The notes under the pieces are model-generated. The model was not told where the DNA came from. It searched no databases and saw nothing but the letters and a program-made list of their open reading frames with translations. A program made the position numbers and the translations under genes. From the sequence record OP978391.1: a DNA stretch of 64,000 nt. The stretch is one strand, 5' to 3'. Below are positions 9,237 to 27,763 of this stretch, one piece after another. Numbering within the stretch: the first letter of the stretch is position 1; every line of letters starts with the position of its first letter. Source of the stretch: Escherichia phage HP3.2.

Positions 9237-9252
9237 AAGGGCCGAAGCCCTT
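9237..9252 (-). terminator. Hairpin AAGGGC-CGAA-GCCCTT (UUCG tetraloop on minus RNA), T-rich on both sides
   Basis: 6-bp stem with tetraloop read directly; between denB and the next ORF. Confidence 0.5.
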
Positions 9253-9255
9253 ATT

Positions 9256-9450
9256 TTATTTGAATTGTGCAATTCTTTTCTCTAGACATTCAGCATAAGA
9301 TTTCATTGAGATAAACTGCGAAAGTAACAGTTCTTGCTCAACTGCATTAACTGTTAGAAACTTTGCGCTTTCTAAAAATTTGCTCAGTGCATTAATTTTG
9401 AGCATTAATTGATCGTATTCTTCTTTTACTCGTGCTTGATAACCTAACAT
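9256..9450 (-). CDS. Hypothetical protein, 64 aa
   Basis: Track ORF flanked on both sides by identical AAGGGCCGAAGCCCTTATTT hairpins. Confidence 0.5.
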   Translation of the reverse strand: MLGYQARVKEEYDQLMLKINALSKFLESAKFLTVNAVEQELLLSQFISMKSYAECLEKRIAQFK

Positions 9451-9454
9451 AATT

Positions 9455-9470
9455 TTCCTTAGTTAAGGGC
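9455..9470 (-). terminator. Hairpin AAGGGC-CGAA-GCCCTT, second copy
   Basis: Identical to the 9237 copy; between rIIB stop and the 64-aa ORF. Confidence 0.5.
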
Positions 9471-24914: not shown

Positions 24915-25081
24915 TCAGTGTATCGCATTTCAGCATTGAACTCGACTGAACCATCTGCATGCATCATGAATGAATGCGTGACGATATCACAATCCCAGCT
25001 TTTCATACCCCATTTATCAGAGATAGCTTTATCAAGAACCTTCTGGAGGTCTTCATTTGGTTTAATCCAGCGATTTAACAT
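24869..25081 (-). CDS. Hypothetical protein, 70 aa
   Basis: Track ORF downstream of an early promoter. Confidence 0.45.
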   Translation of the reverse strand: MLNRWIKPNEDLQKVLDKAISDKWGMKSWDCDIVTHSFMMHADGSVEFNAEMRYTDWGGFQRVEFQRGFL

Positions 25082-25107
25082 AGTGCTCTCCTCTATAAGA
25101 TAATTTT

Positions 25108-25137
25108 ATTATACCATACTCATTTTGGAAAGTAAAC
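25108..25137 (-). promoter_or_regulatory. Early sigma70-like promoter
   Basis: GTTTAC, 18-bp spacer, TATAAT. Confidence 0.5.
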
Positions 25138-25177
25138 CGGTAAAATGAAAAAAGGACTCCCGAAGGAGTCCTTGAAT

Positions 25178-25423
25178 TTATTCACCAGTTACTTTCCACA
25201 AATCTTCGTTTGCAGTAATCCATTCAGTACGTTGATTTTCTTCATATACTGTAGAATATGCTGCTTTTTCTGAAGGGAATATCTGATAATGAGCGCCAGA
25301 AATTTTGTGAACGTCAGAATAAAGAGGGAAAGCTACAGAAATTTCCTTTCCTTCAATTTTCTTATTTCCATCTAATTTTTGCTCAAATGTTTTAATATTA
25401 ACATAACCGCGAGTACTAGTCAT
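25178..25423 (-). CDS. soc: Soc small outer capsid protein
   Basis: 81 aa MTSTRGYVNIKTFEQKLDGNKKIEGKEI..., recognised as Soc. Confidence 0.88.
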   Translation of the reverse strand: MTSTRGYVNIKTFEQKLDGNKKIEGKEISVAFPLYSDVHKISGAHYQIFPSEKAAYSTVYEENQRTEWITANEDLWKVTGE

Positions 25424-25452
25424 GTAATTCTCCTTTATTTAAATTACATGAC

Positions 25453-25460
25453 TATTTATA
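25453..25460 (-). promoter_or_regulatory. Late promoter TATAAATA about 30 nt upstream of soc
   Basis: Exact TATAAATA on the minus strand; soc is a late structural gene. Confidence 0.5.
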
Positions 25461-25604
25461 ATAAATTCTTGCGGAACGTTAAAATACCCAATTTTAGTTA
25501 ATATAACAACATCACCGTTAATAATTACCGGAGAATAATCGGCTGGAGCATTAAACTTCCAATGAGCTCTAATATTATATCCATCAGAACCAAATGCTCA
25601 AAAA

Positions 25605-25618
25605 GCCGGTCTCCCGGC
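25605..25618. terminator. Bidirectional terminator-like hairpin GCCGG-TCTC-CCGGC flanked by AAAA and TTTTT
   Basis: Inverted repeat with A run upstream and T run downstream read directly. Confidence 0.5.
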
Positions 25619-25644
25619 TTTTTGCCATGCATAAAAATCAAATT

Positions 25645-25845
25645 TCATTTTGAATGCTCTATAATTAATTTTAAGGCTTCTTCATGCACCTTACCTAATT
25701 GTATATGTCCAGTTTTAATTGTGTAAGCTTTGTGGAGCTGATTAGATAGGAGCTCGTATGTGAGCTCCTTGTCATAATTTTTAAATAGCTGGTCAATACG
25801 TTTCTTGTGGGCTTTCTTAAGCTGGCGTTTATTTAAACGAGCCAT
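25645..25845 (-). CDS. Hypothetical basic protein, 66 aa
   Basis: Track ORF immediately downstream of gene 56. Confidence 0.5.
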   Translation of the reverse strand: MARLNKRQLKKAHKKRIDQLFKNYDKELTYELLSNQLHKAYTIKTGHIQLGKVHEEALKLIIEHSK

Positions 25846-26363
25846 TAATAACCTCGGTCTTGACGAGCGAAGTTTTCAGCATTTTTCAGATAATAAAGTT
25901 TAAAGATTTCTTCAGCCGTAAGACCGAGACCTTGGAACATGTTCAGAACGAAATGAAGAATATCAATCATTTCGAATTTAATTTCCAATTGGTCTTGTGG
26001 TGACAAATCAGTAATTAGAGTTTCACGACGTTCACCATGCTGCGACTTCCAAGGCTTCCATACAGCAGATGCATCTTTTTCACCATTGCTCATACCACCA
26101 AGAGAAGTCAATAGTTCGCGGAATTCATCATCAATGTAATCTTTCTGATTACGCAGCCAATCGACAACTTCGCCTGCAGTAGCCAAATCATCAGGATGAC
26201 GGTTATATTCAGGTTTATCTTTAGCTAAACGAACCTGCAAAGATTTCTGCATATCAAGCATAACTTGCAGCGGGTCTTTTTCATCACCGAGAATATCCCA
26301 GTATTCATTTTGAGCTTTATCAGCGCCTTCGATCAGTTGACTACATTCGTTAAAGTAAGCCAT
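25845..26363 (-). CDS. 56: dCTP pyrophosphatase gp56
   Basis: Start MAYFNEC with AAGGA RBS preferred; sequence matches T4 gp56. Confidence 0.88.
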   Translation of the reverse strand: MAYFNECSQLIEGADKAQNEYWDILGDEKDPLQVMLDMQKSLQVRLAKDKPEYNRHPDDLATAGEVVDWLRNQKDYIDDEFRELLTSLGGMSNGEKDASAVWKPWKSQHGERRETLITDLSPQDQLEIKFEMIDILHFVLNMFQGLGLTAEEIFKLYYLKNAENFARQDRGY

Positions 26364-26423
26364 TATTTTTCCTTTCAATTCATTAATAAGTTAAATAATT
26401 ATATCATTTGAGTATGTAAGCAA

Positions 26424-27763
<1,340 letters not shown>

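Follow-up and report, generated by a model that had tools for sequence, protein, structure and literature searches.

A probable recent nonsense pseudogene of soc.1 and its terminator-like hairpin in Escherichia phage HP3.2

In bacteriophage T4, an intrinsic terminator is defined by a GC-rich stem, a 4-nt loop and a run of U residues directly after the stem. Intrinsic terminators have been described in the 5' ends of the coding regions of segF and mobE, that of mobE giving ~30% termination (Edgell, Gibb & Belfort, 2010; PMC2988022). Both sit in live genes, whose expression they are thought to limit (PMC2988022), and the gene downstream of such an intragenic terminator is unaffected because it keeps its own promoter. 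In the T4 sequence, the segF element reads GACGCC-GAAA-GGCGTC-TTTTGG and lies ~45 nt after the stop of gene 56, inside segF. T2 carries soc.1 and soc.2 where T4 has segF (Belle, Landthaler & Shub, 2002, cited in PMC5931544), and in T4, soc is translationally occluded on early transcripts (Macdonald, Kutter & Mosig, 1984, cited in PMC2988022 and PMC3014915). T-even genomes have also provided an example of quasi-palindrome mutation, in which a multi-nucleotide change perfects an imperfect inverted repeat; a review of quasi-palindrome template switching (PMC7202029) cites Ripley (1982) for the case of T4 rIIB, one of the systems that first brought the mechanism to light.

Here we describe an interrupted ORF on the minus strand, at 25439–25648 of a 64,000-nt stretch of Escherichia phage HP3.2 (OP978391.1; the whole stretch is called the window, and its allele the HP3 allele). 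We think it likely that this ORF is a recent nonsense pseudogene of soc.1, in which a hairpin native to the gene was perfected, probably by a template switch, into a terminator-like motif. Its components all belong to known kinds, namely pseudogenes, mutations of quasi-palindromes and terminators inside genes of T-even phages.

The soc.1 locus and its interrupted frame

All genes at this locus read on the minus strand, in the order dam, gene 56, soc.2, soc.1 and soc. Gene 56 (dCTPase), annotated at 25845–26363, lies upstream of soc.2, an intact 66-aa ORF at 25645–25845 (annotated as soc.2 in Shfl2 and T6; PHROG 5782). The interrupted soc.1 is followed by the intact gene for the small outer capsid protein, soc (25178–25423), recognized both as an ORF and by annotation. 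An 801-bp query around the soc.1 interval was 100% identical to Escherichia phage HP3 (NC_041919, KY608967) and to the separate record of its derivative HP3.1, and 97–99% identical to many T2-type Tequatrovirus genomes; the RefSeq record of HP3 carries no annotation in the soc.1 interval. The order 56/soc.2/soc.1/soc is annotated, or has its counterpart, in Shfl2, T2, T6, RB18 and PP01, and the ORF lies where soc.1 typically does, with soc immediately downstream and gene 56 on its upstream side, whether soc.2 intervenes or not. The locus is a T2-type arrangement and not a degraded T4-type one. Homologs came from the GenBank collection of phages and from four Logan contigs; scans of IMG/VR, with an exact pattern and with the Soc.1 protein, gave 2–3 loci, and an Rfam search of 25000–26500 at a permissive E-value gave no credible match.

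Translation of 25648–25439 on the minus strand bore out the description given in the first-pass annotation: 16 codons, MKFDFYAWQKAGRPAF, are followed by a TGA and by 52 further codons in the same frame, AFGSDGYNIRAHWKFNAPADYSPVIINGDVVILTKIGYFNVPQEFIINSHVI, which end at a TAA (25441–25439). As also described there, the soc.1 ATG (25648–25646) overlaps the soc.2 TGA (25647–25645) as ATGA, the second part holds no in-frame ATG, GTG or TTG, and the T4-type late promoter of soc, TATAAATA, is located in the 3' end of the ORF, at 25460–25453, within the last soc.1 codons. The suspicion that this is a decaying gene was well founded. Both halves are soc.1, of which T2, T6, PP01, Shfl2 and RB18 have intact copies (69 aa); alignment with T2 and T6 placed a CGA at the position of the HP3 TGA, and the halves are not unrelated genes.

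Intact Soc.1 matched the Pfam family DUF7422 (PF24197) over its full length with E = 3e-46, and also PHROG 5773; an intact homolog scored 155.8 bits against DUF7422, for which the curated cut-off is 27. The 52-residue second half from HP3 by itself matched DUF7422 positions 18–69 (E = 1.8e-31, 108.5 bits), so an open stretch of this length is not a product of chance. Since the second half alone fits DUF7422 and the alternative frame fits nothing (the 38-aa ORF that some gene finders call at soc.1 had no family match), the two halves belong to one gene. A functional member of DUF7422 would have an uninterrupted frame of about 67–74 codons; the HP3 frame is broken at codon 17, and because of this TGA it is a pseudogene of the family. 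HP3 shares with soc.1 of T2-type Tequatrovirus the gene itself, its place between soc.2 and soc, its internal hairpin and the soc late promoter embedded in it, and differs from it by R17* (TGA) and S16F, which are the sole differences in a comparison with PP01 Soc.1 (97% identity). As a consequence of R17*, only a 16-residue peptide can be made: translation, coupled to that of soc.2 via the ATGA, would stop after 16 residues, leaving the 52-codon remainder untranslated. From an alignment of seven sequences, AlphaFold2 gave only a poor model of Soc.1 (mean pLDDT 63, pTM 0.48), and the labels ‘head protein’ and ‘virion structural protein’ attached to Soc.1 and Soc.2 found no support in the material examined.

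The origin of the stop is evident from its relatives. Codon 17 is CGA (Arg17) in the intact soc.1 of T2, T6, PP01, Shfl2 and RB18, and AAA (Lys; Mosigvirus) or CCN (Pro) in distant homologs. Codons 15–17 read GCT AGT CGA in Shfl2, T2, T6 and PP01, GCT AGT TGA in phage 107 and GCT TTT TGA in HP3, where the premature stop occupies 25598–25600. Allele frequencies were obtained with a 54-nt probe as exact matches among the 205 phage records in which the segment is present: GCT AGT CGA was found in 73, GCT AGT TGA in 19 (17 named phages, from several countries) and GCT TTT TGA in three, all of them HP3 or HP3.1, with the TGA stop present in at least 22 of the 205. Because most relatives bear a sense codon at this position (CGA, AAA or CCN), the comparison indicates that the HP3 stop is derived, by a C-to-T transition that converted CGA (Arg17) to the opal codon TGA.

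Phages with a TGA allele share, at the 3' end of gene 56, a haplotype of their own. YUEEL01, whose TGA is embedded in a 3' half that otherwise resembles Shfl2, is a mosaic in which the crossover falls shortly after the stop. The simplest account of the TGA alleles would be one origin, followed by recombination. In the five TGA-bearing sequences that were translated, the second 52 codons were free of further lesions, as a very recent nonsense mutation would predict; decay of soc.1 beyond the stop has not progressed, and readthrough at a low level is conceivable. Divergence within the TGA clade is ~0.6%; dN/dS within the clade is powerless at this level of divergence.

By several signs, soc.1 is a dispensable, T2-type accessory gene. 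In phage Maryam, soc.1 is broken by different nonsense mutations, W30* and R60*; frameshifted variants occur among the database proteins (P0005, P0009 and P0011), and one Mosigvirus copy has a 1-nt deletion in its A-run and uses a later ATG. Its loss in HP3 is tolerated because the gene is dispensable, being absent from T4 and broken in other ways in other phages. Nor is the nonsense mutation polar on soc, as the soc late promoter sits downstream of the stop, within the dead 3' part; it is only at this promoter that homology between T4 and T2-type genomes resumes.

The soc.1 hairpin and the HP3-specific T-run

The first-pass annotation had placed a hairpin immediately 5' of the TGA, and one was found there: GCCGG-GAGA-CCGGC on the minus strand (25618–25605), with a core stem of 25618–25614 and 25609–25605 around a GNRA-type loop, GAGA (25613–25610). 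The stem is flanked by A5 at 25623–25619 and T5 at 25604–25600, the last T being the first base of the TGA. With these flanks it forms a perfect inverted repeat, CAAAAAGCCGG / GAGA / CCGGCTTTTTG (25599–25624), whose 11-nt arms (25599–25609 and 25614–25624) are 100% complementary and 4 nt apart; no other perfect inverted repeat of the hairpin type in the window is as long. As RNA, the 41-nt stretch that contains it folded at -19.3 kcal/mol, with z = -4.8 relative to shuffles.

That annotation had also considered a terminator inserted into the gene, and here it was mistaken, the hairpin being native to soc.1 and present in all intact homologs examined. A stem-loop is found at codons 10–15 in 11 of 11 distinct homologs, down to 58% protein identity, and also in contigs in which soc.1 follows gene 56 directly, without soc.2. 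Most of the stem follows from the peptide alone, in that four of the six pairs are made by first or second bases of the codons for Ala-Gly-x-Pro-Ala (GCN GGN NNN CCN GCN); the codons for Ala-Gly-Arg-Pro-Ala are self-complementary, and those for Gln-Lys, CAA AAA, supply the upstream A-run. Cleavage by RegB at the loop sequence GGAG was considered and dropped; the loops of distant homologs are UCGU, ACGA and ACGU, without GGAG.

The T-run directly 3' of the stem (25600–25604), made up of the TTT of codon 16 and the T of the TGA, is specific to HP3. It is new in HP3 and arose by substitution, not insertion, codon 16 having changed from AGT to TTT, and only the three HP3/HP3.1 records match it exactly. 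The steps leading to it can be followed in the complementarity of the right flank to CAAAAAGCCGG, which is 8/11 for TAGTCG (T2 type), 9/11 for TAGTTG (107 type) and 11/11 for TTTTTG (HP3); the inverted-repeat search accordingly scored 100% in HP3 and 82% in phage 107, and Shfl2 fell under its reporting level. Along with the stop, the C-to-T change gave the repeat one more distal pair, leaving a 2 × 2 mismatch bubble between paired bases. The tandem AG-to-TT change of HP3 fills that bubble exactly, the TT being the complement of the A-run.

Soc.1 varies most at residue 16 (S, I, T, N, A or F); among the 205 records, single-step intermediates between AGT and TTT were not found, and the TTT is confined to one lineage. 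We consider that AG to TT is most likely a templated quasi-palindrome correction, made in a single template-switch event, a judgement drawn from one occurrence; in the HP3 lineage, such an event at a hypervariable codon would have completed the complementarity of the arms at once. The same sequence would result if two substitutions had occurred independently or if a terminator had been selected for. As with the mutations of T4 rIIB, a multi-nucleotide change has perfected an imperfect inverted repeat in a T-even genome; the HP3 case differs in being a natural variant recognized by comparing genomes, rather than a selected reversion of a reporter.

The terminator-like motif and competing explanations

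In sequence, the HP3 motif conforms to a canonical intrinsic terminator of the T4/E. coli type, with GCCGG-GAGA-CCGGC followed by UUUUU; the 107-type and T2-type alleles are without the U-tract. The energy of the stem is -9.3 kcal/mol for the core (5 bp GC) and -14.5 with the A/U extension, values that compare with -14.6 kcal/mol for the soc terminator (25152–25173, minus strand; a UUCG-loop hairpin followed by a T run) and -10.7 for the 39.1 terminator, a T4-type terminator listed in the literature. The hairpin lies 26 nt after the soc.2 stop, at the end of a transcription unit, and upstream of the soc late promoter. A scan of the window for terminator-like motifs (perfect 5-bp GC-rich stem, 3–8-nt loop, T-rich tail) gave 18 overlapping hits, which represent 15 distinct motifs, against 0.6 expected in shuffles, and most had loops of the UUCG type; of the eight other motifs on the minus strand, five lie 2–13 nt past a stop codon, outside same-strand ORFs. 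A generic terminator scan did not list the soc.1 hairpin, which we attribute to A-T pairs that absorb the T-run into the stem.

If active, the hairpin may halt, ahead of soc, part of the early and middle transcription that arrives from gene 56 and soc.2. This raises the possibility that the T-run, and perhaps the stop, were selected in order to insulate late soc from such transcription. The motif fits the sequence definition of T4-type terminators and their typical location, and both steps in the HP3 lineage increase pairing. In T4, moreover, a terminator is present at the equivalent site, just after gene 56 inside segF, and like the HP3 motif it has a GC stem, a 4-nt GNRA loop and a T-run, and lies tens of nucleotides into the next ORF. 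Given this equivalent placement, HP3 can be regarded as having converged on the T4 layout of early unit, terminator-like hairpin, late promoter and soc. The two cases differ in that the host gene is dead in HP3, that the T-run is recent and lineage-specific, and that the HP3 motif is a candidate terminator.

Selection is nevertheless rather unlikely to have shaped the motif. The T-run is present in one lineage (three records) and missing from the 17 other named TGA phages and from all intact copies, and the mutational mechanism predicts the same change without selection. Its benefit is also doubtful, because translation of soc from upstream transcripts is already blocked. RNA from upstream forms a 14-bp helix over the soc start site (25417–25454, minus strand; -20 kcal/mol, z -5.3), which covers the soc AUG and the end of the Shine-Dalgarno sequence. 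In RNA that starts late, after TATAAATA, the 5' arm is lost and the helix does not form (-3.5 kcal/mol, z 0). The occlusion hairpin documented for T4 soc is the same as that in HP3, covering the AUG and Shine-Dalgarno sequence and being disrupted by a start at the late promoter; it is a neighbour of the soc.1 hairpin and distinct from it. With this block in place, a further terminator upstream of soc would be largely redundant. Mutational correction of a native hairpin remains our preferred explanation of the T-run.

More doubtful is the proposal that the soc.1 stem-loop is a conserved cis-acting RNA element, serving as an attenuator, as a 3'-end stabiliser or as a boundary between early 56 and late soc. 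Its basis is the behaviour of the two stem pairs that lie at third codon positions and are free to vary. These show only double changes, no one-sided changes and one mismatch: U-A replaces C-G in GiZh as well as in two metagenomic lineages, and G-C replaces A-U in three. Overall, 98.5% of alignment cells are paired, and the covariation score was reached by none of 500 shuffles. This suggests that pairing of the stem is maintained in soc.1, but it is suggestive only, as the sample is small, independent lineages are few, four of the six pairs are fixed by codons, and template switching between the arms of a palindrome could itself yield apparent compensatory changes. If the proposal were true, pairing would have been kept across genera by compensatory synonymous changes, as a functional equivalent of the T4 segF terminator, and the HP3 hairpin would have been upgraded to a full terminator once the nonsense mutation lifted the constraint from the protein, which would make the locus a living instance of a terminator recruited from a hairpin in coding sequence.

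Of the stop codons, UGA is the one most prone to leak in E. coli, and the TGA might be recoded, read by a near-cognate Trp-tRNA or by a suppressor, so that full-length Soc.1 would still be functional. The 52 downstream codons are open in the same frame, and residue 17 is variable (R, K or P), such that a substitution there could be tolerated. Recoding is nonetheless improbable. Most relatives lack the stop, codon 17 being exactly CGA in 73 records and AAA or CCN in distant homologs; the HP3 tRNA cluster (75–105 kb scanned) contains 11 tRNAs, none with the anticodon UCA; and the open frame is accounted for by the recency of the mutation. Programmed readthrough calls for a stop conserved among homologs with an open downstream frame and for a 3' stimulator or suppressor tRNA, and the homologs compared and the tRNA cluster scanned showed neither; the hairpin cannot stimulate readthrough, lying as it does upstream and not downstream of the stop. 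The first-pass annotation, which had ranked readthrough as less likely on the strength of the letters alone, was right on this point. Frameshifting by +1 or -1 on U UUU UGA was also rejected: it cannot help, because both halves already share a frame, and the +1 frame ends after ~24 codons and has no family match.

The C-to-T change that makes the stop also turns TCGAGC into TTGAGC, a -35-like hexamer, and could on that ground have been selected for a better -35, creating a new sigma-70 promoter in a terminator/promoter composite of the PeSL kind. The hexamers TTGAGC-16 nt-TATAAT (25574–25601, minus strand) match at 10 of 12 positions with a 16-nt spacing and directly follow the hairpin, and PeSL composites are known in T4-like phages. 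However, such matches are frequent in this AT-rich DNA, with 17 sites scoring 9/12 or better where shuffles gave 10 ± 3; TTGAGC-N16-TATAAT does not fit the T4/PST PeSL consensus TTTACW-N17-TAYWAT; the -10 consists of Gly-Tyr-Asn codons and is not conserved in distant homologs; an A/T-rich upstream element is absent; and the site is intragenic, whereas PeSL are intergenic. Promoter creation is on this evidence a slightly poorer prospect even than recoding, and the hexamers are probably due to chance. A middle promoter with a MotA box, sought by eye, was rejected; at 21 nt, the candidate GGCTTTT is too distant from the -10.

An error of sequencing or assembly in the HP3 record is very improbable: errors are common in homopolymers such as the T-run, but the difference is a substitution and not an indel, the separate HP3.1 record is identical, and the TGA occurs in 19 further records from independent laboratories. 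The first-pass annotation had thought a remnant of the T4 homing-endonuclease gene plausible. We can virtually dismiss a remnant or excision scar of this GIY-YIG gene, segF, which T4 carries between 56 and soc; segF replaces soc.1 and soc.2 in T4, a BLASTP comparison of Soc.1 with SegF found no similarity (E = 0.51 over 8 residues), DUF7422 matches the ORF over its full length, and T2-type phages have intact soc.1 and soc.2 here.

Implications for soc.1 and T-even phages

The findings have little importance beyond annotation, the points of curiosity being the series of three alleles and the possible role of a conserved stem-loop. For annotation, the interval 25439–25648 in HP3, and its counterpart in ~17 related phages, is a soc.1 pseudogene, and the ‘transmembrane protein’ called in an alternative frame in some records is not a gene. 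For the T-even phages, the locus offers a natural example in which an accessory gene was lost by a CGA-to-TGA change and a coding hairpin then underwent what was probably a quasi-palindrome correction. If the motif does terminate transcription, HP3, 107 and PP01 would constitute a natural allelic series, with perfect, 9/11 and 8/11 arms respectively, and this series could be used to gauge how pairing between the U-tract and the A-tract affects the strength of a terminator in infected cells.

Variation among soc.1 alleles

Phage vB_EcoM_Maryam carries a soc.1 gene with stop codons at W30 and R60 and with Arg17, the codon lost to TGA in the HP3 pseudogene, intact; this inactivation is independent. 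The Maryam record is 113 kb long, yet is called complete. In the Mosigvirus Shigella phage Shf125875 (L011, 333-556), the A-run 5' of the hairpin is one nucleotide short (AAAA vs AAAAA), and because of this deletion the usual soc.1 ATG is out of frame; the gene is annotated from the following ATG (MAKAGRPA...). This allele keeps the hairpin. The allele of phage YUEEL01 is a mosaic, sharing its upstream haplotype and TGA with the HP3/107 group of TGA-bearing alleles and its downstream part with Shfl2, whose soc.1 is intact, which places a crossover no more than ∼60 nt 3' of the TGA. The original phage T2 entry, 'ORF soc.1' (UniProt Q94MW2), describes a protein of 40 aa that leaves the family frame past residue 23, whereas current T2 genome records give a full-length Soc.1 of 69 aa; the short version is probably a frameshift error of the early sequence.

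Elsewhere in the 754-nt comparison, the sole further change specific to HP3 was in Soc itself, where residue 2 (codon 2, 25418-25420; 25421-25423 region) is Thr (ACT), against Ala (GCT) in all of the phages compared.

Annotation of the locus

A 38-aa ORF with a TTG start lies in the +1 frame of the dead soc.1 (minus strand, 25525-25641; 860-976 and 349-456 in phage records L003 and L024, respectively); in phages 107 and CHD2BS1 its annotation reads 'putative transmembrane protein' or 'hypothetical protein'. It matches no family, and appears to be an artefact of gene calling in the space that the soc.1 pseudogene leaves empty. In RefSeq records, that of HP3 among them, and in PHROGs (PHROG 5773 and 5782), the names given to Soc.1 and Soc.2 are 'head protein', 'virion structural protein' or 'small outer capsid protein'. 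In Pfam, Soc.1 is DUF7422. In the material examined we saw no evidence of a structural role for either protein, and the structural labels apparently go back to what the two loci are called (soc.1 and soc.2), and spread from there. The RefSeq taxonomy line for HP3 (NC_041919) reads 'Caudoviricetes; Rosemountvirus'. In sequence and gene order the phage is a T2-type Tequatrovirus (Straboviridae).

Terminator-like hairpins in soc.1 and across the window

Soc.1 residues 1-15 (MKFDFYAWQKAGRPA) are almost invariant in alignment A3. The first 26 nt of the gene (columns 1-26, codons 1-9; 25623-25648) are near-identical even among homologues of only ∼58-62% identity, and synonymous changes are rarer there than in the remaining gene. 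Read on the plus strand, the hairpin (25599-25624) has TTTTTGCC after it in all T2-type phages, since soc.1 codons 9-10 are CAA AAA; a putative opposite-facing terminator-like motif is thus present even in intact Tequatrovirus soc.1 genes. In distant homologues the antisense motif is weaker (CTTCTG or TTTCTG).

The T4 '56/segF' terminator, GACGCC-GAAA-GGCGTC-TTTTGG (minus strand, 2700-2745 of the T4 record L004), lies about 45 nt past the gene 56 stop, within the first ∼25 codons of segF, and has in common with the soc.1 hairpin a GNRA-type loop. A scan of the 64-kb window for GC-rich hairpins with a T-run found 15 distinct motifs against 0.6 expected; the set consists of short stems closed by a UUCG or CGAA tetraloop (9238-9466, 14747, 36556, 39340, 41497, 45787, 49440, 50396 and 63151). 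Several form bidirectional pairs, and of the eight minus-strand motifs other than the soc.1 hairpin, five sit 2-13 nt past a stop codon. These motifs are presumably the regular terminators of the phage.

Predicted occlusion of the soc start site

RNA folding predicts that a transcript started upstream forms a 14-bp helix at 25417-25454 (minus strand; −20 kcal/mol, z −5.3), whose pairs take in both the AUG of soc and the final G of the gene's Shine-Dalgarno sequence. The helix is lost from RNA begun 3' of the late promoter TATAAATA (−3.5 kcal/mol, z 0). This predicted behaviour in HP3 agrees with the published occlusion mechanism for T4 soc.
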